From Candidatus Liptonbacteria bacterium (GTDB lineage Bacteria > Patescibacteriota > Minisyncoccia > UBA6257 > JACOXY01): 64,000 bases of DNA. Under the pieces are notes generated by a model. That model had not been told where the DNA came from. It did no database searches and worked only from the letters and a program-made list of their open reading frames with translations. The stretch's first letter is position 1; every line of letters begins with the position of its first letter. Position numbers and translations under genes: made by a program. Below are positions 2,432 to 64,000 of this stretch, piece after piece. The DNA lies in the NCBI GenBank assembly GCA_016182095.1, contig JACOXY010000014.1, positions 7,234 through 71,233 on the forward strand. The letters run 5' to 3'.

Positions 2432-2860
2432 TTATTGCCCCTCGATTGTTATTCCCATTGATCTCGCCGTGCCTTCAATGATTTTTTCTGCCGCTTCAAT
2501 ATCGTGAGCATTTAAATCAACCATTTTTTTCTCTGCAATTTCACGCACTTGCGCCTTCGTTACCTTTCCTACTTTCGTCTTCAGGGGGTCGGCGGAACCC
2601 TTATCCAGACCGGCCGCTTTTTTTAAAAGCGCTGAAGCTGGCGGAGTTTTAAGCTTAAAAGTAAAACTCCTGTCTTCATATATGGTAATAACCGCGGGCA
2701 CCACGTCCCCCGTCATTTCTTTTGTGGAATCGTTAAATTGCTTACAGAAGTCCTGTATGTTTATGCCATGGGGCCCGAGCGCCGTTCCCACGGGAGGGGC
2801 CGGGTTCGCTTTTCCGGCCTCTAATTGCAATTTTAAAGTTGTTTTGATTTTCTTGGCCAT
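2432..2860 (-). CDS. rplK: 50S ribosomal protein L11
   Basis: MAKKI...[24 protein letters not shown] is the canonical L11 N-terminus; 142 aa. Confidence 0.95.
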
Positions 2861-2987
2861 CCCTCACTCAAGAAGGGGTATTATTTTGCCTTCTTGTTAT
2901 TCTTAGTAATCCGTTACTAATCTTTTGGGTTATATTACCACCCCAGGGGGCATTAGGGCAAGAGCTTGCCCCTTCTTGAGTGAGGGA
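2860..2987. promoter_or_regulatory. family-1 long-range inverted repeat (TCCCTCACTCAAGAAGGGG, about 90 bp spacer, CCCCTTCTTGAGTGAGGGA) abutting the rplK start codon
   Basis: perfect 19-bp arms at 2860-2878 and 2969-2987; the proximal arm carries GAGTGAGGG directly before the ATG; the spacer (minus strand) holds TTGCCC-18-TAATAT, a plausible promoter. Confidence 0.5.
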
Positions 2988-3061
2988 TAAATCCAATCAT
3001 GCAAACAAATTTATGTATTTGGTTTACTTTTTGTAGTTCCGATATGAAGCGGAAACAAAAA

Positions 3062-3619
3062 CTATATTTTTTTCACCTGCAGTGAATCAATCTCCACCGC
3101 CGTATCTCTGCCGAAAATCGGCACCATAACCTTGACCTTGCCCTTCTCCTCATCTACTTCCGCAATCTTGCCATCATAATCCTTAAAGGGGCCGTCGGTA
3201 ATCTTTACCATCTCCCCCACGCGCAATTCAACGGTCATCTTGGGCTCACCTTCTCCCATCTGACCTAAAAGAAAATCAACTTCTTCCTTAGAAAGCGGGG
3301 TGGGCACGGTTGAGTCGGCGCCAACGAATCCAGTAACGCGCGGGGTATTTCGTACTATATACCATGATTCTTCGGTCAAAATCATGTCCACCAAAACATA
3401 TCCTGGATAAATTTTCTCCTCAATAGTCTGACGCTTGCCGTTTTTAATCCTTATCTTTTTTTCTTTTGGAACCAAGACATTGAAAATTTTGTCCCCGGCC
3501 TCAAGCGATTCTATTCTTTGCGTTAAGTAGCGAACGACGGCATCTTCGTATCCGGCGTAGGTGTGAATTGCGTACCAATGCCTATTTTTGGTTGTTTTTA
3601 CTTCTTGTTGGTCTTTCAT
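3062..3619 (-). CDS. nusG: transcription termination/antitermination factor NusG
   Basis: NGN and KOW regions (WYAIHTYAGYE... / ...GEMVKITDGPFKDYDGKI); conserved secE-nusG-rplK order. Confidence 0.9.
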   Translation of the reverse strand: MKDQQEVKTTKNRHWYAIHTYAGYEDAVVRYLTQRIESLEAGDKIFNVLVPKEKKIRIKNGKRQTIEEKIYPGYVLVDMILTEESWYIVRNTPRVTGFVGADSTVPTPLSKEEVDFLLGQMGEGEPKMTVELRVGEMVKITDGPFKDYDGKIAEVDEEKGKVKVMVPIFGRDTAVEIDSLQVKKI

Positions 3620-7300: not shown

Positions 7301-7716
7301 AGCGCGTTAACCACAGAAACCCCAACGCCATGCAAACCACCGGAAACTTTATAAGAATCACCGCCAAATTTGCCCCCGGCGTGAAGCGTGGTCATAACTG
7401 TTTCCAGGGCGGATTTTTTCGTCTGCTTATGAATATCAACCGGGATGCCGCGCCCATTATCGGTAACCGCCACCCTATTCCCCGGCAAAAGCTCAACTTT
7501 GATAGCAGTGGCATACCCAGCCATCGCCTCATCAATAGAATTATCAACCACTTCCCAAATCAGGTGGTGCAAGCCGGCGCTGTCGGTTGTGCCAATATAC
7601 ATCCCGGGGCGCTTTCTTACCGGCTCAAGACCCTCCAAAACATAGATGTCCTTTGCTTCATAGCTCGCGTGCTTTGACGCGTCTGGAGTTTTTTTAGTTT
7701 CTTTTACTTTTGCCAT
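4387..7716 (-). CDS. gyrB: DNA gyrase subunit B, interrupted by an in-frame intein
   Basis: 1109-aa ORF; GHKL ATPase motifs, TOPRIM EGDSAGG and a C-terminal GyrB tail; host protein is about 675 aa once the 434-aa intein is removed. Confidence 0.95.
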   Translation of the reverse strand: MAKVKETKKTPDASKHASYEAKDIYVLEGLEPVRKRPGMYIGTTDSAGLHHLIWEVVDNSIDEAMAGYATAIKVELLPGNRVAVTDNGRGIPVDIHKQTKKSALETVMTTLHAGGKFGGDSYKVSGGLHGVGVSVVNALSIYLKAEVCRDGYLYEQEYERGKAKKVVKRVGKCDQIGTKVIFEPDPEIFSTGGGEIKFDWKYILDHLRQQAFLTKGVRIDFWDLRTDAPKYYALKFDGGLLSFLRHLTPAAKVLQDDPFYIQKSENNIEVEVAFTYTEDIESKELSFANNIYTSDGGMHSTGFKSALSRAINSYARTEGYLKEKDDNLTGDDVREGLVAVISVKLSQPQFEGQTKARLGTPEARTVVESVVSESLKEFLEKHPADARRMVEKCLLAAKARKAAKAAKDTVLRKGILEGLTLPGKLADCSSRDPAESELFIVEGDSAGGCFSGNTKVSLADGRNLSFKDLVHEDKKGIQNYCYTIDKDGAVAIQKIVYPRITKKNTEVVKVVLDNGEEIICTPDHEFMLLNGSYKKARDLLSQDSLMPLYKKISKIGGRITIDGYEMVFNSQNQKWIFTHMLSDDYNLKNNIYEKSIGAHRHHIDFNKLNNNPENITRLSSEDHLGLHRKMADIFLRSPQVLEKLRLIRQTPEYRNKIRASMSTPQMRKMLSERAQKQWQDKDYKQFMTDKFLDFYHNNAAYRAQSASILSRAQKEYWSEEKNRRDQANRTRAYFENHPEKRLAYSEFAKIQWNDEKLKKWRSGKTKDQWTPEFRLRRKLAYNETYKQKALQALRGIYETKGEIDFSEYENLRKATNDKNLLRAETIVKRFFGSDARNLVEAVERHNHKIKEILWLNEKVDVYDLEVPKTHNFALASGVFVHNSGKMGRDRRTQAILPLRGKILNVEKSRIDKMLANKEIRALVMALGTAIAQDFNIEKIRYHKIVIMTDADVDGAHIRTLLLTLFYRYFPQVIHGGYLYIAQPPLFRIQSGKEVQYAYNENEKEAIIVKFGKARAGKHELKEAEKADAEEAAGDRRVAVNVQRYKGLGEMNPDQLWDTTMNPATRKMLVVTVKDAEDADKLFDILMGDEVEPRKQFIQTHAAGVKNLDI
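5071..6372 (-). other. intein (Hint splicing domain with an HNH endonuclease-like domain and a basic repeat-rich region) in gyrB, inserted immediately after EGDSAGG
   Basis: starts with Cys (CFSGNTKVSLADG...TPDHEF), ends ...VYDLEVPKTHNFALASGVFVHN followed by Ser+1; internal HRHHIDFNKLNNNPENITRLSSEDH is an HNH motif; residues 449-882 of the ORF. Confidence 0.8.
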
Positions 7717-7907
7717 TTTTAAATGAAGAGCGTAGCGATGAATCTACAAAAATGAGCACCCCGCTCTAATTTTGCTATCACCATATCTTAAAATTCAGTT
7801 GGAACTATTTATATGATATTTGGTGCGACCTGCGCGTGCCGAATAGGCACATCCCGCTAATGGGCGAAGCGGGTCGCCATGGCATATTCCGCAAAATTAG
7901 AGCGGGG
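7717..7907. promoter_or_regulatory. family-2 element upstream of gyrB: conserved leader (AAGAGCGTAGCGAT...GAGCACCCCGCTCTAATTTTGC) whose far partner GCAAAATTAGAGCGGGG lies about 115 bp away; the spacer carries GC-rich local hairpins
   Basis: 17-bp perfect inverted repeat at 7759-7775 and 7891-7907; the leader is shared with the parB and rpsR upstream regions. Confidence 0.45.
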
Positions 7908-8242
7908 TAGCCATCTCAACAAAATAATGCTCCCCCCAGGAGCTAGATTTTCTTAATATTTTATACTTACAGTTTAGCATAAAACGAGTCTAAAAACAAC
8001 AGAAATTGGACTTAAAAAGCAACGCTACCCCGCACTAAATTCCGCACATTATTTGCTCTAAACTGCTTTTATTATCGTCACGGAAACCGCCTCAACTCCG
8101 GGTAGTGAATTGAATGAGTTTCGGCTTTGGCAAGCGCTCTTTGTTCGCTAACATAGAGAATTAGCGCGGGGTTCTGTTGCTTGTAGCTTTTCGAACTGCG
8201 CGCTTCGCGCTTGTTCTTAAAGACAAGCAACGAAAAAGAGGG

Positions 8243-9439: not shown

Positions 9440-9811
9440 TTATCTTCCAAGTGTCGCCCTGATCTTTGCCACCACCTCATTCAAATTCAGCGTCGCTTTT
9501 ACCAAATAATACGCCGGTTCATATTTAATTACATCCGCCATCACCTTGTCATCAGGAATTTGATTGGTTAAAACCACTATCGGAACTTTTTTACCCAACG
9601 GATCAGCCCGAAGTTTTTCCATAACTTTAATGCCGCTCATCTTTGGCATTAGAAGGTCTAAAAGTATCATATCCGGCTTTTGGCTTAAGGCAGCAGTAAG
9701 GCCCTCTTCGCCATCTTTCGCCTCAAGGACTTCAAATCCTTCGTTTAATAATGTGTCCACTAACGCGGCGCGTAGCGGAGTTTCGTCTTCAACAATAAGA
9801 ATTTTTGCCAT
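9440..9811 (-). CDS. response regulator, receiver domain only (CheY-like)
   Basis: DETP...D(54)LLMP...K motif layout; 123 aa with no output domain. Confidence 0.85.
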   Translation of the reverse strand: MAKILIVEDETPLRAALVDTLLNEGFEVLEAKDGEEGLTAALSQKPDMILLDLLMPKMSGIKVMEKLRADPLGKKVPIVVLTNQIPDDKVMADVIKYEPAYYLVKATLNLNEVVAKIRATLGR

Positions 9812-9935
9812 CCCTCACTCAAGAAAGAGCATTATCCGCCCTCTCTTTTTTTAATTAATTTATCAACTTAATATTACTCGACTAAAAACATTTTATTCTA
9901 GAGACAGAAACCCAAACTCTTTCTTGAGTGAGGGA
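9811..9935. promoter_or_regulatory. family-1 long-range inverted repeat (TCCCTCACTCAAGAAAGAG, about 87 bp, CTCTTTCTTGAGTGAGGGA) between the histidine kinase stop and the response regulator start
   Basis: perfect 19-bp arms at 9811-9829 and 9917-9935; the proximal arm overlaps the regulator ATG and the distal arm abuts the kinase stop. Confidence 0.5.
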
Positions 9936-11198
9936 TTATAGCTCTGCTGTAGTTGCGATGACCTTTGTACCCGCTCTGGGCTTCATGCCCGTCAGTGGTA
10001 TTGTAACATAAAAAGCAGTGCCTCGCTCGTCCGTAGCTTCACGCGAAGGAGAGCCATGCCCACCCACAGACTCAAACCAAATTTTCCCGCCGGCCGCTTC
10101 CAGGGTTGCCTTAACAATATATAATCCCAAACCGTTGCCTTCAATCTCATTGCTTTTAACATTGTCTGCCCGAAACATTTTGGTAAAAATTTGCGATTTT
10201 TGATCTTCCGGTATTCCATAGCCGGTATCCGTTACTTTAATAAGCGCGTTCTCGCCATCCTTAATAATACTCAAGCTTATGCTGCCTCCCTCCGGGGTAT
10301 ACTTAATGGCATTTGATAATAAATTCTGAAAAACTATCCAGACTATTTTGGAATCGGCATTTATGGAAACCAGAGTTTCGTCATAGCGCTTTTCCAGTTT
10401 CAGTTTTTTCTCCATGAGCTTTCCTGCGAGCTCACCCAAAACGCCCTCGGCGATTCCCGCTAAACTCACTGGCTCCGGGTTAATTGAAAAAGTTCCCATT
10501 TCAACCCGTGAAACATTCAGTAGGGCGTTTACCAAATTTATGACTCTTTTTATGCTGTAGCCAATCTCATTTAAATACTGTATCTGCTTGTGGTTTAGCT
10601 CTCCCACTCTACCCGAAAGAAGCATCTGCGCGTACCAATTGATAACGGAAAGCGGGGTGTTCAACTGATGCGAAACCAAGGACACAAACTCACCGCGCAC
10701 CCTATCCGACTCCTTCCTTAGGGTAATATCCTGATGCAAGGAGCCATAAAACAATATCTCCCCGCCCTTGGACTTAATCGGAAAAACAGAAAGATTGGTT
10801 TCATATTCAGTGCCATCTTTGCGGCGATTAATAATTTCTTCCGTCGTCAAAGACTCGCCGTTCTTCAAGGAGTCCCACATTTTTTTATAGGCGAGTTGGG
10901 GAGTTTTGGAACTGCGCAGAAGGCGGGGGTTCTTGCCCTTGATATCAATCAAACTATAGCCGGTAACCCTTTCCCAGGTAGGATTTACATAAATAATATT
11001 GCCATCCAAATCAGTGATGAGAATTGCCTCCGTTGAGGCATCCACAATGGATTGAAAAATGTGCACCTCGCCGCTAACCGCCCTTGGGTCCGCTTTTAAC
11101 TCACTTAACTCCGCGGAGATTTTTTCTTTTTCGGCAAGCGCGCTCTCTAAGGCGGCTTTAAGTTTTTCTACTTCTTGGTTTGATGAAAATCCTAACAT
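9936..11198 (-). CDS. sensor histidine kinase with a PAS domain
   Basis: PAS region, H-box HQLNTPLSVI, N/G boxes (...NAIKYTPEGG...GTGLGL); upstream partner of the response regulator. Confidence 0.85.
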   Translation of the reverse strand: MLGFSSNQEVEKLKAALESALAEKEKISAELSELKADPRAVSGEVHIFQSIVDASTEAILITDLDGNIIYVNPTWERVTGYSLIDIKGKNPRLLRSSKTPQLAYKKMWDSLKNGESLTTEEIINRRKDGTEYETNLSVFPIKSKGGEILFYGSLHQDITLRKESDRVRGEFVSLVSHQLNTPLSVINWYAQMLLSGRVGELNHKQIQYLNEIGYSIKRVINLVNALLNVSRVEMGTFSINPEPVSLAGIAEGVLGELAGKLMEKKLKLEKRYDETLVSINADSKIVWIVFQNLLSNAIKYTPEGGSISLSIIKDGENALIKVTDTGYGIPEDQKSQIFTKMFRADNVKSNEIEGNGLGLYIVKATLEAAGGKIWFESVGGHGSPSREATDERGTAFYVTIPLTGMKPRAGTKVIATTAEL

Positions 11199-27867: not shown

Positions 27868-28045
27868 TTTTTAATTTATAATTTTTGGTTTATAATAGAA
27901 TTATGCCCAGTAATACAACTTACAGTATACTTGGCAAATTGTAACAAATCATTAGTAATGAACTTGAATAAATATTTATCAACTGATAAAGCTAGTTGAT
28001 TTTTATTTTTTAATAAAAATCACGCTGTAAGTTGATATACTAGGT

Positions 28046-28816
28046 ATGGCGCCTATAGAAAAGGAGGGTTATTGGACTCCATTAGAAAAACAGGTTAGAG
28101 ACTATATATTCCTGCCAATTACTTGGCCATTTAAGTTTATTCCGCATGCGGCCAACATTTTGACGATGATCGGATTCGGCATACTTTTTTATGCCATTTA
28201 CGATTTCTATATATATGAAAGCTATTCCCGCCAGATTTGGCTTTTAACCGCCGCCTGGCTCACGGATTTATTTGATGGACCGATAGCCAGAAACAACAAT
28301 GATGTAACCGCCTTCGGCACAGCCGCCGACCATATCCGCGACTACTTCATAAGTTTCTGGATGCTCACCCTCGCCTTCTTTATAACGGCAGATTCTCCGC
28401 AGTTTTGGCCGGTTTACTGGATTCTTGTTTTTACGATCTTGGGGCTTTTGGGCGTCATAGCGGGCACGTTGCTCTTCCAGAAAGAAAAACGCGGCGAGCG
28501 GCCATGGGGCGGATATCTGGATTTTTTCCGGGAATTTTTATTGAAAGATCTGGTCACGTCGGTAACGGCAAGAATACACACGGTAATCATGGCAATCGGC
28601 GGAGTTTTCTATATCGCGGGTGCCGCCTTGGGAGATGTTTACGCGAAAACAGGGGTGGTTATATTGATAATACAGCTTTTTGTTTTGGGCTTTTATAACC
28701 ACGAAATCCATGAGGCGCGCTACGAAGACAGGGCGCATAAAATAAGAAATATTCTCCAGGAAAAAATCCGCGAGTTGGAAGAAAAACTTAAAAAACACGT
28801 AAAAGTTGACGGCTAA
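28046..28816 (+). CDS. CDP-alcohol phosphatidyltransferase family protein with a C-terminal extension
   Basis: D(x2)DG(x2)AR...G(x3)D(x3)D motif: DLFDGPIARNNNDVTAFGTAADHIRD. Confidence 0.7.
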   Translation: MAPIEKEGYWTPLEKQVRDYIFLPITWPFKFIPHAANILTMIGFGILFYAIYDFYIYESYSRQIWLLTAAWLTDLFDGPIARNNNDVTAFGTAADHIRDYFISFWMLTLAFFITADSPQFWPVYWILVFTILGLLGVIAGTLLFQKEKRGERPWGGYLDFFREFLLKDLVTSVTARIHTVIMAIGGVFYIAGAALGDVYAKTGVVILIIQLFVLGFYNHEIHEARYEDRAHKIRNILQEKIRELEEKLKKHVKVDG

Positions 28817-28834: not shown

Positions 28835-29782
28835 CTATATCTTCACTCTTTCTATCGGTATTGGCGGATATCTTTCAGGATCAATAGTTCTTGAAAAACA
28901 AACCCGGCCTGCGTCATGAGACCAGTTTTCACTATAGCCGTAGGGATTATAGACGGGCTGTGCAATGGCAGCGTCTTTTAGATCGCTCCCAACGTTAAAA
29001 ACAGCGCAAAGCTCAAACGAATAATTGCCGGTTTTTACGTATTCATAAATGTTTCCGGTTTGAGGATCTTTCGGCGGGACAAATCCAGAAATATCATCAC
29101 GCAAAGCATCCAGAGAGTCGGGCAGAGCTCTTTTAGTTTGCCAATAATTCACTAACTGCGATTGCAAAATCTGGAGATCGTTTACGCGCCTATCGTCAAA
29201 TTTTTGCAGGCGCGCCGATTGCGGAGAGCCGGCAATATAAAATCCCGTTACCACAAAAGCTAAAACTACTAAAATCACCGCGGAGATAAAAACCCTCATC
29301 GTGGGATCTTTGATTGCCATCGTTTCTTTTTTAAGGTTCCAGTTATAATAAACGAAAACTGCGACAGCTATCGCGAAAACCGTTAGAACTTTAAGAATAA
29401 ACCTCACGGTAATTTCTCCGTTTAAGAATGTGTAGATTAAAGAAACCAAATCCCCCACTATCACGAGAGCAGCCAGAGATAGTGTAAAGTAAATGAGCCA
29501 CTTCCTAACCTTTAGCTCGCGCTTTTGGGGATTCTCCACCACATCTTTTTGCGTGCGGTAAGAGAGCCAGGCATAAACCGGAAAAACAACCACCAAAATA
29601 GATAGCGGCCATTTCAAGCTGTCTTTCGCGTAGCGGCCGTACTCATAAGCCAGCGGATCGGGAAAGTAAATATTAATTAACTGAAAAATCAGCGACCCCA
29701 ATGCCACAACGGTTACGTATAGGCCCATTATTGAAAGAAGGTGAAAAAACACGTCTTTCGGCCCAGTTTTTGAATGATTCAT
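28835..29782 (-). CDS. hypothetical polytopic membrane protein (315 aa)
   Basis: about six hydrophobic helices plus a C-terminal soluble domain. Confidence 0.55.
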   Translation of the reverse strand: MNHSKTGPKDVFFHLLSIMGLYVTVVALGSLIFQLINIYFPDPLAYEYGRYAKDSLKWPLSILVVVFPVYAWLSYRTQKDVVENPQKRELKVRKWLIYFTLSLAALVIVGDLVSLIYTFLNGEITVRFILKVLTVFAIAVAVFVYYNWNLKKETMAIKDPTMRVFISAVILVVLAFVVTGFYIAGSPQSARLQKFDDRRVNDLQILQSQLVNYWQTKRALPDSLDALRDDISGFVPPKDPQTGNIYEYVKTGNYSFELCAVFNVGSDLKDAAIAQPVYNPYGYSENWSHDAGRVCFSRTIDPERYPPIPIERVKI

Positions 29783-30090
29783 CCCGTTAGAGATAGGAGG
29801 CGCAACGCCTCCGTAATTTGTTTGCGACTATTTGAAATCAGGTTATTTGAAATATTTTTGCATCCCATTAAATATAGTTTGGTTATTTCTAACGGGATTC
29901 ATAATAAAATTATCATAGCATTAATTATGCGGCTTCCGCAACATATCTGGAGCTAGCGCATCATAAAACCAAAAGAAAAATAACAAGAGCGGCAAGGGAT
30001 AAAATCAGCCAGCCAAGGGTTATGAGCAGTAAATAAACCGCTTGTTTTCAAATGTGGTCAATTTTGGAAAAAGTGCGAACCCACTACGAG

Positions 30091-30203
30091 CAGAACCCTG
30101 ACAAAACCTAACCGCTCGGGCGGCGCGGAATTCCCCCCTTGAACCCCCCTTCCGCGCCGCCCTCGCGGGAAGTTCGTTTTTGCCCGCTTCGCGGGCACGC
30201 CGC
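30091..30203. repeat. left arm of an about 113-bp near-perfect inverted repeat bounding the R-M/ImmA island
   Basis: differs from the reverse complement of 33153-33265 at about 3 positions; GC-rich with internal palindromes. Confidence 0.85.
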
Positions 30204-33152: not shown

Positions 33153-33265
33153 GCGGCGCGCCCGCGAAGCGGGCAAAAACGAACTTCCCGCGAGGGCGGC
33201 GCGGAAGGGGGGTTTAAGGGGGGAATTCCGCGCCGCCCGAGCGGTTAGGTTTCGTCAGGGTTCTG
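33153..33265. repeat. right arm of the about 113-bp inverted repeat bounding the R-M/ImmA island
   Basis: reverse complement of 30091-30203 with about 3 mismatches. Confidence 0.85.
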
Positions 33266-42178: not shown

Positions 42179-42982
42179 TCACAAATTAAAGTTCCCAAAT
42201 TGGGGCGACATTTGGAATTGATCTTCCTGTCTTATAATTTCTTTCGCGAGCTTGTTATAGGCATAGGCGCCTACTGAATTTGGAGCGTGTAATATAACCG
42301 GCTTTGCGAAACTTGGGGCTTCCGCCAAAGCTATGGACTTGGGTATTTCGGTATTGTAAACGTGATGCGGGAAATGCCTCCTTAGCTCCCTGCCAACCTC
42401 CCTGGATAATCGTTCGCGCTTATCATACATCGTAAGCACCGCTCCTGCAACCATGAGCGGATGGCGCAGATTGTCCCTTACTAAATTTATGGTGTGTAAA
42501 AGCTGGCCCAGTCCTTCCAGACTATAATACTCAGCCTGCACCGGGATCAAGACCTCGTCAGCCGCTATAAGACCATTTACGGTAAGCAGACTTAAAGACG
42601 GCGGCAAGTCTATTAAAATATAGTCGTAATTGTGTCTTATGCCAGTAATAAATTTTCGCAAACAGTGTTCTCTCTCCGGCATCTCAACTAATTCAATAAG
42701 AGCGCCTGCAAGATGAGGCCCAGCTGGGACATACGACAAGCCATAAAGCGCGGAGTTCTTGATTAGAGCGTGCGGTTCGCTAATGCCAAAAATACCATGA
42801 TAAATGGTGTGCTCCTCTCCCATCACATTGTGCCCTAATGCAGAACTCGCATTCCCCTGCGGATCAAAATCAATGACTAATGTGGAACGCCCGTGAGACG
42901 CAAGATAGCCGCCCAAATTTACGGCACTAGTGGTTTTTCCAACTCCCCCCTTAGCGTTACAAATTGCTATAACTCTGGCCAT
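42179..42982 (-). CDS. parA: chromosome partitioning ATPase ParA/Soj
   Basis: deviant Walker A KGGVGKTT; 267 aa. Confidence 0.9.
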   Translation of the reverse strand: MARVIAICNAKGGVGKTTSAVNLGGYLASHGRSTLVIDFDPQGNASSALGHNVMGEEHTIYHGIFGISEPHALIKNSALYGLSYVPAGPHLAGALIELVEMPEREHCLRKFITGIRHNYDYILIDLPPSLSLLTVNGLIAADEVLIPVQAEYYSLEGLGQLLHTINLVRDNLRHPLMVAGAVLTMYDKRERLSREVGRELRRHFPHHVYNTEIPKSIALAEAPSFAKPVILHAPNSVGAYAYNKLAKEIIRQEDQFQMSPQFGNFNL

Positions 42983-43270
42983 CCCTCACTCTTCAAGCAT
43001 TGATTCTCTCAACCGACGCTTGAGAGAGTAGAAACCTTTAGCAAAACGCTTAAGTTGCTTCTCGCGATTAAGCGCATCTGTTTTAGACCTATAACTTTCA
43101 AAATATATTAATGTCATTGGAAGCAGATGTTTAGTAGATTGAACCAGCCTTTTACTATGTTTTACTAATCTTTCTCTAAGATTTGGCGCAAAGCCTATAT
43201 AGAAACTTTTATCCTTCTTTGATTGTAATACATAAACATAAAACATAGTATATGCTTGAAGAGTGAGGGA
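42982..43270. promoter_or_regulatory. family-1 long-range inverted repeat (TCCCTCACTCTTCAAGCAT ... ATGCTTGAAGAGTGAGGGA) whose 250-bp loop contains a GIY-YIG gene; the proximal arm abuts the parA ATG
   Basis: perfect 19-bp arms at 42982-43000 and 43252-43270. Confidence 0.5.
42986..43246 (-). CDS. small GIY-YIG nuclease-superfamily protein
   Basis: MFYVYVLQSKKDKSFYIGFAPNLRERLVKH matches the GIY-YIG core; start taken at Met13 so the distal repeat arm lies in its leader. Confidence 0.7.
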   Translation of the reverse strand: MFYVYVLQSKKDKSFYIGFAPNLRERLVKHSKRLVQSTKHLLPMTLIYFESYRSKTDALNREKQLKRFAKGFYSLKRRLRESMLEE

Positions 43271-43319
43271 CGATATCTTCACTTTAACTTAAAATCGTGG
43301 TAATATCAATGAGAAAAAT

Positions 43320-43405
43320 GCTTGGGTGGCGAAACGGCAACCGCGATGGACTCAAAATCCATTGATCGCAAGATCTTGAGGGTTCGATTCCCTCCCCAAG
43401 CACCA
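43320..43405 (+). tRNA. tRNA-Leu (anticodon CAA), long variable arm, CCA encoded
   Basis: GCUUGGG acceptor, anticodon loop CUCAAAA, variable hairpin, T-arm GAGGG-UUCGAUU-CCCUC, 3' CCCAAGC-A-CCA. Confidence 0.85.
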
Positions 43406-43611: not shown

Positions 43612-44007
43612 ATGCAGGAACTCGGAACGGGTGTTCTGAACTGGGACATCGACGAGCGGTGTTCCGATCGCTACGGACAGGTTTTTCTTCTTTCCTCGCC
43701 TGACAGTGAGGAACGAGTCAAGCTCGTCCAAGTGAAGGGTGGCGTGCGCGGGCGGCTTATGGCCATCGTCAAGGAGACGAGGCAGTCCCGCCACATCGGC
43801 GACCTTTTCCACGGTGTGTTTCCCAAGACCCCGAAAGTGGGCCAGAAGATCACGCTGGGCGAAGGAACGCTGTTCTTCCGAAACTACAACGCGGTCGGTG
43901 TTCAGCCGGACGACGGTCGAGACACACTGTGGCTCGACATCAACGGGCTCTACAAAGCCCATGAGCAGACCGTCACTCTCTACTTCGAGGAGCTTCCGGC
44001 CAACTGA
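43612..44007 (+). CDS. hypothetical protein (132 aa) encoded by a GC-rich foreign segment
   Basis: strong GAGGAGG Shine-Dalgarno 7 nt before the ATG at 43612 and sharp GC elevation, both atypical for this genome; lies between tRNA-Leu and its partial 3' duplicate. Confidence 0.55.
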   Translation: MQELGTGVLNWDIDERCSDRYGQVFLLSSPDSEERVKLVQVKGGVRGRLMAIVKETRQSRHIGDLFHGVFPKTPKVGQKITLGEGTLFFRNYNAVGVQPDDGRDTLWLDINGLYKAHEQTVTLYFEELPAN

Positions 44008-54705: not shown

Positions 54706-54830
54706 GCCCAGTAACACTACTTCAGTGTTACCCGACATATAAGCAAACTAATTGTCATAAAACAATGTCAAAATGCCAAACTAATAATTTATGCTTCGGA
54801 AATAAATTATGCTGAAGTAGTGTTACTGGG
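54706..54830. repeat. 20-bp perfect inverted repeat (GCCCAGTAACACTACTTCAG / CTGAAGTAGTGTTACTGGGC) separated by an about 85-bp AT-rich spacer, 170-300 bp upstream of rpoB; the left arm also folds locally
   Basis: seen in the sequence; same promoter-flanking inverted-repeat architecture as other loci in this window. Confidence 0.6.
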
Positions 54831-54859
54831 CAAGTCTTTGTAATATAATGCTTTCGCAC

Positions 54860-57955: not shown

Positions 57956-58091
57956 GCAATATATAAATTATCCTTGCTTCTCCTAAAAAATGAATAAGAA
58001 AATGCCGAACTCAACCTGGTTTTGCTAAAGCAAAACTGCGGGATTCAAACAGCGGCATTTTCTTATTTTTTACTCGAAGCTTCGGTAATTT
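57956..58091. repeat. left arm of an about 135-bp near-perfect inverted repeat; each arm is a nested palindrome resembling a bidirectional terminator
   Basis: reverse complement of 59503-59638 with about 2 mismatches; inner 15-bp stem AATAAGAAAATGCCG/CGGCATTTTCTTATT with flanking A- and T-runs. Confidence 0.85.
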
Positions 58092-59502
58092 ATATATCTT
58101 GCTACGCGATGCTTATTCAAAAAGATTTTATGCTCTTACATATATTAAGATAATAGCAGAAAAAATAAAATAGAAAAAGCCCCGCCAACTTGTGACGAGG
58201 CGGCCCCGCGCAGTTTATCAATGCCCGGGGTGGTGGCTGGGGGTGCCGTAGCACCTAGGGCCTGCCACCTCGGTCAGAGACTGGATCCTTGAAGCGCGTC
58301 CCCTTGTGGGGCCGCCTTCAAGTTGTGAGCCACTGGCTCACAAACAAGCGCGATCCAATCTCCTGGAAAATTTTAAGAACTCGCGGAGGGAGATGTCGGC
58401 CTATCCCGTGGCTCGGTTGCCGGCTGGTCGGGCCAGGCAGAACGGCAGCTTGCGCTGCGGCCTTGTTTCCGTCGTTGCCCAGCGCCCATTCCCCGACAGT
58501 TTACCGGACATCTCCTCCCGCGAAATCTGGGCTCGCAGCTTCGCACAATTGACAACTGACACTTAACAATTGACTTGTGCAGACAAGCGCAAATTTCGTG
58601 GGATAAGTTTATTTTATTTCCTGAGCCTGTCGAAGGAATACAATACTGTAGTGCTTCGACTACGCTCAGCAACTAAATTTTCACCCCCCCAAGTAAATGT
58701 TTTTCACTATCTGCCTTTCCTGAAATATCTTACTTGAATGAAACGATTGACTGAAAAACACTTACTTGGTACATTACAGCTACGCCCAGAACTTCGTCGG
58801 GCCCGCGCGCACGACATACGGTGCGTTAGCCGGCCACCTCTGGACGTAGGACTTGCGGCGACCTCGAGATCACCGCGCACCAATGAAAAGAACTTGCGAA
58901 GCTCGGAAGAACAACTTCCGTCGTCTTACGGTTCGGAAACCCCGAACGCTGCAGCGGTAACAGCTCCCACGGCCAGCGCCAAGCACCAGCATCCGAGCTC
59001 CCGGCGAATATTGGAGGTGTGCTGCCCGGACCAGCACACCCCCGCTGCTTTAGCCAATCTCCAGGAAGTGTCTCGGGCCTCCCAAGATTGGATTTCAACA
59101 TTATAGCATACTATCCAGAATAATGCAAGTAGTCAAAAAAACAGCGTGAAATAAGGGTTTTATAAGCAAGTGAGAAGCCCAACTTTGTGACATCCGATGT
59201 CCAGAAACAAAAGACATTAATATTCGGGACATCGGAAGTCAATGCAAAGTCCAACTTTGCGACATCCGATATCTAAAGATGTGGCTGCGGAAAGAAGCCC
59301 AACTTTGTGACTTCCGATGTCCAGAAACAAAAAACTTCAACCCTTCGACTTCGCTCAGGGCAGGCATTTAGGACTTCGGATGTAAGGGGTTATCCTACTA
59401 TATACTGCCCCACTTGGCGCCAAAAAGCCACACGAGGGGTAAGACCTAATATTTGGAAAATGGCGCAACATTTTTTTATGAGCATCACACAGCAATATCT
59501 AT
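58092..59502. other. about 1.4-kb GC-rich non-coding structured element of unknown class, bounded by the 135-bp inverted repeats
   Basis: no ORF longer than 122 codons despite high GC; overlapping short ORFs in all frames; many perfect local and long-range helices; three about 42-bp direct repeats at 59174-59335. Confidence 0.4.
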
Positions 59503-59638
59503 AAATTATCGAAGCTTCGAGTAAAAAATAAGAAAATGCCGCTGTCTGAATCCCGCAGTTTTGCTTTAGCAAAACCAGGTTGAGTTCGGCATTTTCTTAT
59601 TCATTTTTTAGGAGAAGCAAGGATAATTTATATATTGC
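59503..59638. repeat. right arm of the about 135-bp inverted repeat
   Basis: see the left arm. Confidence 0.85.
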
Positions 59639-62057: not shown

Positions 62058-63302
62058 CTAATGGGCAATTTTCACAACCCGAACTTTCTGAATCTGGTGG
62101 CCAGACACTTCTTCCACTTGAAATTTAAGCCCATTTAACTCAAAAGCTTCGCCAAGTTCCGGGGCGTGATTAAGTTTTTCCGTAAGAAATCCGTGTAATG
62201 TTTTCTTGGACTTGATCTCGGTATTGAAAAAATGGTTAATAGAGGCGATTTTTGTCTGGCCATGAGCAATAATCTCATCTTTGCTCACGCGCTTGATAAT
62301 CTCGGGCACAATATCTTTTTCGTCAATAATTTCTCCGACCAATTCCTCCAATACGTCTTCAAGGCCAACCACGCCCACAATATTGCCATACTCACTAACT
62401 ACAACCGCTAAATGCAAACGCTTCTCCTGAAAATCGTGTATGAGATCATCCGCAAGCCGGGTATCGGGAACAAAGAATGCCTCTTTGGCGTAACTCAAAA
62501 CTTTTTTATCAAACTCATCGCTCGCGAGGGCGCGCAAAAGATCTCTCTGGTGGACGATGCCCACGATATTATCTTTATTTCCCTGATACACTGGGAGGCG
62601 CGAATGCTTGGCGTTTTTAATAAATTCAGCGGCATCTTTTATGGTAACCCCGCCGTCCAAAAAAGTAACAAAGGGCCGCGGAGTCATCATGTCTCCGGCG
62701 GTAATGTCATTCAATTTAAATACGCGCTCAATCATGGCGGCTTCGCCGGCCCGGATCACGCCCTCTTTCACGCCCGCCTGGGTTAAGAGCGCGATTTCTT
62801 CTTCGGAGGTCGTAAATGGCGAGGCACCGCTCGTAAACGGCTTTGAAATAATTTCTAAAATTACGACCAGTGGAGAAATAAGAATAGTAAGCCAAGAAAG
62901 TGGAACCGCGGCTAACGGAAAAATAACAGGGCTCCAGCGCTCACCGATATTTTTAGGAAGAATCTCGGCAAGAGTAATCATAAAAAATGTCAGTATCGCC
63001 GAAAAAATCCCGATGCCTAAATCAGAAAAAAGCTCCGCGGCAAGCGTTCCCATGAAAATACTCCCCACAGTACTTATAGTCGAAGAAAGCACCACAAGCG
63101 TCGCGATGGTTTTTAACGGCTTTTCGCGCAATTCCAATGCCTTTCGCACCCCAAATTTACCTTGCGCAACATAGACACGCGCCTTAGAAATGGGGTAAGA
63201 AAATAGCGCCGCCTCAATCAAAGAAAGCGTCCCGCCTATTGTTATTAATCCTAAAGCCAAAATGACTAAAGCTGCCATACCCGGTATATCAACTTTCAGC
63301 AT
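62058..63302 (-). CDS. CNNM/CorC-HlyC family transporter (DUF21 TM domain, tandem CBS, CorC_HlyC C-terminal domain)
   Basis: four N-terminal TM helices, CBS pair, C-terminal transporter-associated domain. Confidence 0.8.
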   Translation of the reverse strand: MLKVDIPGMAALVILALGLITIGGTLSLIEAALFSYPISKARVYVAQGKFGVRKALELREKPLKTIATLVVLSSTISTVGSIFMGTLAAELFSDLGIGIFSAILTFFMITLAEILPKNIGERWSPVIFPLAAVPLSWLTILISPLVVILEIISKPFTSGASPFTTSEEEIALLTQAGVKEGVIRAGEAAMIERVFKLNDITAGDMMTPRPFVTFLDGGVTIKDAAEFIKNAKHSRLPVYQGNKDNIVGIVHQRDLLRALASDEFDKKVLSYAKEAFFVPDTRLADDLIHDFQEKRLHLAVVVSEYGNIVGVVGLEDVLEELVGEIIDEKDIVPEIIKRVSKDEIIAHGQTKIASINHFFNTEIKSKKTLHGFLTEKLNHAPELGEAFELNGLKFQVEEVSGHQIQKVRVVKIAH

Positions 63303-64000
63303 GATTTATTTTTGCAAAATAAATCATTAAATCTGGTGGTTGATAATATTTATGATAATTTAATTTATTTTAAACTTTTTCGCATTTTGCCAAAAAACTG
63401 AAAGTTGTATTACTGGGCATAGTTTTAGCATACGGAAATTATGGGAAAATAACAAAGCTACGCACCAGAACAAGTTCGGTGCGTTACTTCACTTCGTTTA
63501 GCTTTCTCTCACAAATTAAAAAAGTTTGTTCTACTTTATCAAGTTCTTCGGAACTGAAGGCGCTACGGTGCCGGCCCCTAACCCACTGCGGTTGGGGGTT
63601 TTTTATTTTAAACAAAAATCCGCCTCTCGGCGAAATTTTTCTGCTCTTCTTTGTGCTGGCGTACCCTACTTTCCCAGTGATAGTATCATCAGGCTTAGAC
63701 GCTTTCACTTCTCTGTTCGGAATGGGAAGAGGTGGTGCACATCCAAGTAAAACACCAGCACAAAAAAGACCAGATTAAATTTTAATATAGAAATTAGCAG
63801 ATATATGCCTTCCTTAGGAAGGGCACAGTCAGCATTGGGATGGTCGGCACCCATTAGTACCCTTTGGCTCGGCACTCTCTACACAAATATCGCGAAACAT
63901 TGGAAGCTCAAAATTATGCCGGAGCTCGCGGCGCGACGACGAAAGTGTACTCGAAGAGTACATTGAGGAGGAGCAACAAAGAGATCATCTAATTTTGAGT

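Follow-up and report, generated by a model that had tools for sequence, protein, structure and literature searches.

We propose that a 289-bp unit in front of parA, in a 64,000-nt stretch of Candidatus Liptonbacteria DNA (contig JACOXY010000014.1; the whole stretch is called the window), is one copy of a compact selfish element. The element would consist of a gene for a GIY-YIG nuclease of ~87 amino acids, enclosed by terminal inverted repeats of ~20 bp, and would be moved and tolerated as set out below; we put the probability of this reading at roughly 70%. Its ends are conserved and read CCC(C)NCAC ... GTGN(G)GGG. In the window it appears to have been inserted between the parA promoter and a near-leaderless parA start codon, and the ~290-bp unit looks like selfish DNA that is widespread in the ultra-small bacteria of the candidate phyla radiation (CPR). 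The reading is carried by the anatomy of the copy at parA, by the recurrence of arms and gene as a unit, by empty sites in relatives, by a preference for particular sites with precise, co-oriented placement, and by short direct repeats. The features around parA are as follows.

42982–43270, minus strand: whole element of 289 bp, made up of left arm, GIY-YIG open reading frame (ORF) and right arm, which separates the parA promoter from its ATG.
43252–43270, minus strand: left (upstream) terminal inverted repeat, TCCCTCACTCTTCAAGCAT in gene sense, ending 5 nt 5′ of the ORF's ATG.
42982–43000, minus strand: right terminal inverted repeat, ATGCTTGAAGAGTGAGGGA, which holds the last codons of the ORF and its TGA.
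42986–43246, minus strand: gene for an 86-aa single-domain GIY-YIG nuclease (Pfam PF01541).
43281–43309, minus strand: promoter-like site TTGATA-17-TAAAGT, the native parA promoter, now 5′ of the element.
42179–42982, minus strand: parA, 267 aa, the downstream host gene, with its ATG 3 nt past the nuclease stop.
43320–43405, plus strand: tRNA-Leu(CAA), divergent from parA, whose conserved position beside parA marks the empty site in relatives.

An initial annotation of this DNA had described an inverted repeat around the GIY-YIG ORF upstream of parA, and this repeat is real: its arms are 19 nt long, 100% complementary and 251 nt apart, far beyond chance. The 17-mer arm core has only two sites in the window even with up to three mismatches allowed (0.14 matches expected), and two or more matches were obtained in none of 100 shuffles. 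When the element was folded as single-stranded DNA (ssDNA), the long-range stem appeared in both the minimum-free-energy and the centroid structures (z = −5.3). The ORF had been placed inside the loop; an intact 86-aa ORF is indeed bracketed by the arms, except that its last five codons and the TGA stop lie within the right arm. The left arm follows the promoter-like site at a distance of 10 nt, precedes the nuclease ATG by 5 nt and is separated by 49 nt from tRNA-Leu(CAA), whose proximity had been correctly reported. The final base of the right arm is the A of the parA ATG (42982), which gives the junction TGA-GGG-ATG. The identical arrangement was found in three independent assemblies and is therefore not an assembly artefact. 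At the gathering threshold, Rfam gave no match in or near the element, its matches in the window being tRNAs and 5S rRNA only. The sequence predicted for an empty parA site is TAAAGTGAAGATATCG joined directly to ATGGCCAGAG.

The window ORF belongs to the GIY-YIG nuclease superfamily. It encodes 86 aa from its ATG (98 aa from an upstream GTG, reading through the left arm), begins with MFYVYVLQSKKDKSFYIGF and matches PF01541 with E = 6e-13 and 49 bits (cutoff 22.6); the residues Y5, Y16, G18, R26, H30, E50, R61 and E62, invariant in 30 homologues, are all kept. A protein of 100% identity is encoded by a metagenome-assembled genome of Candidatus Liptonbacteria, which places the window in a CPR/Patescibacteria genome; the 64-kb window contains no other GIY-YIG ORF, and the family comprises 5,617 clusters (50% identity, E no greater than 1e-10). 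The initial annotation had asked whether the protein is YhbQ-like or a homing endonuclease. Strictly it is neither: it appears to be a single-domain GIY-YIG protein about equally far from the UPF0213/YhbQ type and from SsnA of Neisseria, with no DNA-binding extension of the homing type. Specifically, the best matches among solved structures were the UPF0213 proteins 1zg2 (E = 3e-11) and 1ywl (3e-7), followed by SLX1 (1e-5), and a tblastn search with the window protein found Neisseria gonorrhoeae ssnA at E = 5e-5 (28.6% identity over residues 4–72). The family profile scored SsnA at 52 bits and UPF0213 proteins at 46 (BH0048) and 34 bits. With 86 aa, a single domain and detectable SsnA homology, the protein has the size and the homology expected of the Ssn family.

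These data bear on the idea that the gene encodes a free-standing homing endonuclease, which would spread into allelic empty sites by double-strand-break repair and for which the repeats would be incidental, as a terminator or as an attenuator of a toxic nuclease. GIY-YIG is a classic homing fold, the NCBIfam model of group I intron endonucleases gave a weak, sub-threshold match (E = 6e-4, 19.9 bits versus a cutoff of 56), and intergenic co-oriented placement resembles that of phage seg genes. We nevertheless give this idea very little credence, since the 86-aa, single-domain protein has no DNA-binding domain and Rfam detected no intron in the window. Moreover, the element occupies many sites with no relation to each other, not a single conserved allele, and repeats with conserved ends accompany 64% of the copies (see below) and are hence not incidental. 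A group I intron, or an intron-encoded homing endonuclease, is not supported: Rfam matched only tRNAs and 5S rRNA, the domain is bare, and 19.9 bits stand against the required 56.

That arms and gene travel together was seen in other genomes. A protein-profile scan with one genome per species yielded at least 552 confirmed cases among the 600 candidate stretches listed, of which the best 80 loci were kept (loci are denoted by L numbers). The flanks of nearly all of them have one and the same layout. A flanking inverted repeat scoring ≥ 12 was present in 58 of 90 homologous ORFs (64%) from other, mostly CPR, genomes and in 0% of shuffles. The repeats of the family are 13–24 nt long, with outer ends CCCC[C/T]CAC...GTG[A/G]GGGG and a variable inner arm, and the end motif CCC[N]CAC of the window's left arm is common to 51 elements elsewhere. 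Units measure 274–351 bp (median 295); in repeat-flanked copies the median gap between left arm and ATG is 5 nt, and the stop codon falls within the right arm in 33 of 57 copies. In the three closest homologues (66–77% identity) the arms are nearly the same as in the window, ATCCCTCAC[C/T]CTT.AAGCAT; each of the three precedes a different gene, and the junction is always ...GTGAGGG-ATG or ...GTGAGAG-ATG. One of the three lies between rplV and rpsC, within the operon and in front of rpsC, at a TAA/T...ATG junction. Paralogues within one genome are 71–78% identical, have unrelated flanks and contain an ORF each. The comparison supports inverted repeat and GIY-YIG ORF as one recurrent unit, present at unrelated sites in many genomes. 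Because the arms co-occur with the ORF at unrelated genes, and because no parA relative examined has the hairpin while rplK relatives have none or a different GIY-YIG element, the arms belong to the element and not to the host genes. Terminal inverted repeats, unrelated genomic sites and empty sites in relatives are also the properties by which an insertion sequence (IS) or a miniature inverted-repeat transposable element (MITE) is recognized.

Empty sites were found at parA itself. A metagenome scan with ParA returned 80 loci, and the divergent pairing of tRNA-Leu and parA is conserved in the ParA relatives. In the ~20 closest of them among the loci returned (58–70% identity), the distance from the tRNA end to the parA ATG is usually 46–66 nt, and the same relatives have neither a GIY-YIG gene co-oriented with parA nor a hairpin upstream of parA. 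Ordinary conserved synteny, in which all relatives would carry the gene here without repeats, is thus not what these loci display. Relative L098 has the same TTGATA-N17-TAAAGT promoter 6 nt before its parA ATG, and other relatives (L084–L107) have a −10-like hexamer 6–12 nt before the ATG and no visible Shine-Dalgarno sequence. With the promoter so close to the ATG, the parA mRNA of this lineage seems to have little or no leader. The window has the promoter/ATG arrangement of these relatives plus a 288-bp insert between promoter and ATG. The suggestion that a small nuclease gene was inserted, or mobilised with its hairpin, is borne out by the empty tRNA-Leu/parA spacers together with the recurrence of the unit at unrelated sites. 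A second suggestion, according to which the parA leader includes the nuclease mRNA, holds in so far as the element does lie between promoter and ATG, which is a consequence of the insertion; the arrangement is not conserved.

The same spacer has received GIY-YIG genes of another subfamily. Five relatives with 49–61% ParA identity (L102, L138, L139, L147 and L151) have such a gene pointing at tRNA-Leu and flanked by a direct repeat of the 5′ part of the tRNA-Leu gene. At L147, L151, L138 and L139 it is of the MHYVYIL type, lacks an inverted repeat and has a direct repeat of 25–43 nt; at L147 and L151 the upstream partial tRNA copy is broken in the anticodon loop by a hairpin-rich insert of ~65 nt. 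Judging from these sequences, the genes in the five relatives are independent insertions.

Two further hairpins of the window, assigned with the parA copy to a single repeat family (family 1) by the initial annotation, were recovered, with loops of 90 and 87 nt and perfect 20-nt arms.

2859–2988, minus strand: ORF-less copy of 130 bp, directly adjoining the ATG of rplK, with a 90-nt loop between perfect 20-nt arms ATCCCTCACTCAAGAAGGGG.
9810–9936, minus strand: ORF-less copy at the response-regulator gene, 127 bp, 20-nt perfect arms ATCCCTCACTCAAGAAAGAG, 87-nt loop.

The core TCCCTCACTC occurs exactly six times in the window, namely in the six family-1 arms, a count reached in 0 of 100 shuffles, and the 11-nt end ATCCCTCACTC is common to both ORF-less hairpins and the parA element. 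In each ORF-less hairpin the last two arm bases are the AT of the downstream ATG (rplK and response regulator respectively). The arms of the two differ at positions 17 and 19, and both changes are matched in the partner arm (GGGG/CCCC versus AGAG/CTCT). The response-regulator copy exactly fills the gap between the histidine-kinase stop (TAA, 9938–9936) and the regulator ATG (TAAT/CCC...GGG/ATG), which implies a former TAATG stop/start overlap. We regard both hairpins as probable ORF-less, MITE-like (non-autonomous) copies that share the 11-nt ends. Their origin as deletion derivatives of the resident ORF-bearing copy was rejected, as only the arms match and the loops are unrelated. Comparable copies occur in other genomes: at L015 (4646–4775), 20-nt arms identical to those of the ORF-bearing L014 of the same genome enclose an unrelated 90-nt loop and abut a tRNA, and shorter ORF-less copies at L012, L007 and L040 have the arms of the resident element. 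Loop lengths are nearly equal across genomes despite unrelated sequence (87, 90 and 90 nt).

Could these hairpins instead be host regulators, with a stem that sequesters the start codons of parA, rplK and the response regulator for translational or RNase III control, and a nuclease gene that landed in the parA loop? In each of the three window copies the stem includes the A(UG) of the gene that follows, the differences between the two ORF-less copies at arm positions 17 and 19 are compensated in the partner arm, and in structural RNAs (see below) the element does occupy a pre-existing hairpin loop. By eye, −10-like hexamers are also present in the ORF-less loops (TGgTAATAT at rplK); they are weak, and a promoter scan of the loops did not call them. 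The comparative data argue against a regulatory origin, which we consider improbable. None of the parA relatives examined has a hairpin upstream of parA. The closest rplK relative, L169 (L11 88% identical), has a GIY-YIG element of a different subfamily between nusG and rplK (837–1136; arms CCCCGCACCTT / AAGGTGCGGGG, CCCCGCACC-type), which occupies the same spacer as the window's ORF-less hairpin, and the other two of the three rplK relatives examined (L169–L171) have no hairpin upstream of rplK. Furthermore, arms and ORF co-occur at unrelated genes in dozens of genomes. Mismatches between arms (13 GT-type, 8 AC-type and 26 other) show no bias towards G-U wobbles, contrary to what selection on a sense RNA would leave; the arms are therefore not demonstrably under such selection, and perfect arms are equally expected for terminal repeats recognized as DNA. 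The regulatory hairpin of parA and rplK proposed by the initial annotation is for these reasons not supported.

The selfish-element reading is further supported by the choice of sites. Each unit abuts, always in the orientation of its host, the +1 position of a tRNA, the start codon of a gene, or a hairpin loop within 23S rRNA or RNase P RNA. Of the copies immediately 5′ of a tRNA, 25 point the same way as the tRNA and none the opposite way; where such a copy is flanked by repeats, the tRNA +1 lies 1–5 nt inside the right arm. In ~15 copies the right arm ends on the start codon of an ORF of ≥ 70 aa. At L019 (2967–3272) and L041 (2963–3267), the element sits in the apical loop of a 23S rRNA hairpin at position 583/584 of the Rfam large-subunit model, which, from our own comparison with Escherichia coli 23S rRNA, we take to be the helix-25 site of intervening sequences (IVSs). 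The copy at L045 (2973–3326) is in a hairpin loop of RNase P RNA (model position 92/93), and others (among L027, L043, L071 and L020, ~3000–3275) stand directly before the conserved GAGGAAAGUCCGG or GGGUAAGGGUGAAA of this RNA, the 5′ end of the L027 alignment being too poor to tell which helix is hit. The Rfam consensus of the host hairpins is G/C-rich at the top, cccc-loop-gggg in 23S rRNA and ccgg-loop-ccg in RNase P RNA (L045). The comparative evidence for mobility is good, and the choice of sites appears unusual and very precise. That the elements generally lie directly behind a promoter was considered and dropped, −10-like enrichment 5′ of the left arms being weak or absent; this placement was kept for parA only.

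Direct repeats were counted in 40 elements, with boundaries set at the C-run and the G-run and with permuted controls. Exact adjacent repeats of 7 nt (8 nt in two L031 copies) flank 9 of the 40 elements and none of the controls. All nine cases (e.g. CCGTTAG, CGGTTAG and CCTGTAG) are at tRNA sites, where the terminal G-run of the element replaces the first Gs of the tRNA. Other sites have ATGNNN-type repeats of 5–7 nt with a mismatch, or 7-nt repeats that start in the G-run (GGATGAA, GGATGAG, GGGTTGA and GGGGTAG); still others have repeats of 2–6 nt or none. At L031 (1832–2426) two 100% identical copies form a target-element-target-element-target tandem with an 11–12-nt tRNA 5′ segment between them, which arose by unequal exchange or by two insertions in the very recent past.

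This pattern also bears on the possibility that we are dealing with a domesticated, Ssn-like system, in which the nuclease is a host factor and the hairpins are its cis sites, which would limit or shape the recombination of incoming ssDNA near selected genes, as NTS and SsnA do in Neisseria, and which would have been spread by recombination and not by transposition. The protein is homologous to SsnA and the layout, a gene between inverted sites, is the same; Ssn homologues are usually flanked by hairpin sites, which are also dispersed (PMC11893778), and the window contains one nuclease gene for at least three cognate hairpins in 64 kb. Exact co-oriented placement, 7-nt duplications and tandem copies are the pattern of an inserting element and not of protective sites, and copies within one genome have diverged, each with its own ORF. 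We therefore think domestication unlikely, though it keeps a small share of the probability; it is compatible with past mobility and does not exclude it, and the authors of the Ssn study themselves raised the domestication of an IS-like ancestor (PMC11893778).

If the unit is a selfish element, we infer the following for the target cut by the nuclease, the movement of the element and the processing of its RNA. At the DNA level, the two ends would anneal into a stem whenever the DNA is single-stranded. The nuclease, by analogy with SsnA, would recognize the CCCNCAC/GTGNGGG base of the stem and nick beside it, and the nick could start copying or insertion at G-run sites by host repair or replication, leaving short direct repeats. 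A hypothetical circle, or an end-to-end junction of the element, would have the sequence ...GAGTGAGGG(A)/(T)CCCTCACTC.... At the RNA level, given co-orientation and closure of the stem at the gene start, the transcript would carry the element as a self-contained stem-loop. By closing at the first nucleotides of the host gene or by extending a host RNA helix, the stem would insulate the insert structurally. The stem-loop may then be cut out of the transcript by a double-strand-specific RNA nuclease, as for rRNA IVSs, or it may be bypassed by stop-start coupling or termination-reinitiation (TGA-GGG-ATG at parA); by either option expression of the host gene would survive.

Several points weigh against an element of this kind. 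We know of no transposition chemistry for the GIY-YIG domain, and an 87-aa hydrolytic nuclease cannot join DNA alone; the GIY-YIG nuclease is the sole ORF of the element, which encodes no known class of transposase. The empty sites come from relatives with only 58–70% ParA identity, and polymorphism in presence or absence at the strain level was not found, all contigs with an identical ParA carrying the element. Direct repeats accompany only ~25–40% of the elements and their length depends on the choice of boundary: alternative parses, with the C-run and G-run counted as element or as target, give direct repeats of 7 nt or of 10–11 nt. No convincing target duplication was found at the parA copy or at the two ORF-less copies of the window. 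In the rRNA and RNase P cases the CCCC/GGGG ends coincide with the consensus of the host helices, so that part of the terminal motif may be target. The loop sequences of the ORF-less copies have nothing in common with one another or with the ORF, which is unusual for MITEs derived by deletion. Finally, the canonical Ssn-related motif (SRM: HGTCWY..YYVSBRH..WNVSBRG..RNCYNB) had 0 matches within 400 nt of 89 homologous ORFs at other loci. In its place, a split inverted repeat with CCCNCAC ends flanks the nuclease genes; the single match to the SRM pattern in the window is unrelated to the element.

A more far-reaching version of the proposal, which we advance tentatively and which has the odds somewhat against it, is that these units are the first prokaryotic family of DNA transposons to rely on a GIY-YIG nuclease and, at ~295 bp, the smallest of all known mobile elements that carry a gene. 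The Ssn-like ssDNA nuclease of 87 aa would recognize the stem made by the two ends of its own element, insertion would occur in G-runs at tRNA +1 positions, start codons and RNA hairpins, and insulation or excision at the RNA level would render the insert harmless. No bacterial GIY-YIG transposon was found in the literature, and searching in the UPF0213/YhbQ context was likewise unproductive. If the transposon proposal is true, insertion sites would include TAATG stop/start overlaps and the CCCC-loop-GGGG hairpins of rRNA and RNase P RNA, and it would account both for the ORF-bearing non-intron insertions in CPR rRNA and for promoter-carrying mini-hairpins at gene starts.

The selfish-element reading has consequences of its own. 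It would bring together three observations hitherto kept apart: small hairpin repeats at the starts of genes, stems of the IVS type, and the GIY-YIG ORFs found inside rRNA insertions of CPR bacteria. It would also supply a context of mobility for the newly described Ssn-type nucleases, whose IS-like architecture has so far only been remarked on. For annotation it is a warning that perfect hairpins over start codons in CPR genomes are probably ends of elements and not regulators. The element would mark leaderless or translationally coupled gene starts with single-nucleotide precision, and each pair of nuclease and arms is a candidate for a new specificity in programmable ssDNA cutting.

The window contains other repeats as well. 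A second hairpin family (27903–28047, 63277–63420 and 54706–54831) has arms ATGCCCAGTAATAC.../...GTATTACTGGGCAT and loops of ~86–99 nt; in two of the three copies the final bases are the AT of an ATGGC start codon (genes starting at 28046, plus strand, and 63302, minus strand). It has the design of family 1, a different end motif and no cognate ORF in the window. The hairpin at 29774–29905, with arms CCCGTTAGA(A/G)ATA, is flanked by the direct repeat ATGAATC, which includes the start codon of a 315-aa gene starting at 29782 (minus strand); its arm motif CCCGTTAGAAA also flanks a second GIY-YIG copy at locus L017 (1052–1309). At 7758–7908, 42 nt 5′ of a 1109-aa ORF starting at 7716 (minus strand), the perfect 18-nt arms of an inverted repeat, ACCCCGCTCTAATTTTGC, enclose a loop of 115 nt; the ends of this repeat resemble the CCCCGCAC subfamily. 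Two 139-bp sequences, 57959–58097 and 59497–59635, are mutual reverse complements, each a hairpin, and flank a 1.4-kb segment of raised G+C content (0.51); the arrangement (57959–59635) may be a composite element or an invertible segment. Likewise, two G+C-rich palindromes of ~57 nt (CCGCTCGGGCGGCGCGGAA...), at 30112–30168 and 33188–33244, are mutual reverse complements 3 kb apart, the latter adjoining a tRNA cluster at 33.3–33.6 kb. Just 3′ of tRNA-Leu, a 131-aa ORF (43612–44007, plus strand) has no Pfam or NCBIfam match and is, by eye, richer in G+C than its surroundings; it may be foreign DNA on the 3′ side of the tRNA.

Several known systems resemble the element in part. UPF0213/YhbQ proteins and SLX1 gave the best solved-structure matches, and UPF0213 proteins share the size and single-domain build of the nuclease. 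The G-x-G-A-K-Y-T-R signature of the UPF0213 matches is absent from the present family, however, which scores slightly higher against SsnA, and to our knowledge no association of UPF0213 genes with flanking repeats has been reported. The Correia elements of Neisseria are MITEs with terminal inverted repeats; they contain promoters, and RNase III cleaves their transcribed copies. The ORF-less copies of ~130 bp are like them in having terminal inverted repeats of ~20 bp, in lying just 5′ of genes and in showing, by eye, −10-like hexamers; they differ in that there is no sequence relation, an ORF-bearing partner exists and the loops of the copies are mutually unrelated. We know of no cognate gene for Correia elements. 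With IS200/IS605 and REP/RAYT, where single-strand transposases recognize hairpins and non-autonomous hairpins are dispersed, the element has in common a tiny gene with hairpin DNA sites, dispersed ORF-less copies and a likely ssDNA substrate. It differs in that the nuclease is GIY-YIG and not HUH/Y1, and the hairpin is formed by both ends jointly and not sub-terminally at each end. Direct repeats occur at some sites here, whereas IS200/IS605 insertion makes none. The authors of the Ssn study draw the same analogy to IS200/IS605 and REP/RAYT (PMC11893778).

Insertions in rRNA are a second point of contact. At L019 and L041, an ORF inside a long bounding stem occupies an apical loop of 23S rRNA, as in 23S IVSs and CPR rRNA insertions, and GIY-YIG ORFs do occur in non-intron insertions of CPR rRNA, without looking like homing elements to the authors who recorded them (Tsurumaki et al., 2024, PMC11270868); the term ‘inverted repeat’ is never used in that paper. 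The window copy differs in occupying a promoter-to-ATG gap and not an rRNA, and most other copies also lie outside rRNA.

The closest characterized relative is the Ssn family. SsnA of Neisseria is a 94-aa single-domain GIY-YIG protein and a hairpin-specific ssDNA nuclease (Chenal et al., 2025, PMC11893778; the text of that paper does not contain the word Patescibacteria, ‘CPR’ not having been looked for). It binds the NTS hairpin in ssDNA only and cleaves immediately 5′ of it, a stem assembled from a pair of separate oligonucleotides being cleaved as well; the ssnA gene typically has such sites on both sides (NTS-ssnA-NTS), an architecture that the authors call IS-like (PMC11893778). Across 3.2 kb of the gonococcal ssnA locus we counted nine canonical NTS repeats, and the two that flank the gene most closely are mutually inverted. 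The arms described here differ in not being palindromic singly, the stem forming only between two distant ends; the SRM is absent beside these genes, the end motif being CCCNCAC, and co-oriented placement at gene 5′ ends and RNA loops with flanking duplications has not been described for Ssn. In common are a single-domain GIY-YIG protein of ~90 aa with a YIG...REKQLK core, a gene between inverted hairpin-forming sites, dispersed ORF-less sites and stems that begin (T)CCC...GGG(A), and the two-strand stem accepted by SsnA is comparable to the window stems that close across loops of 90–250 nt.

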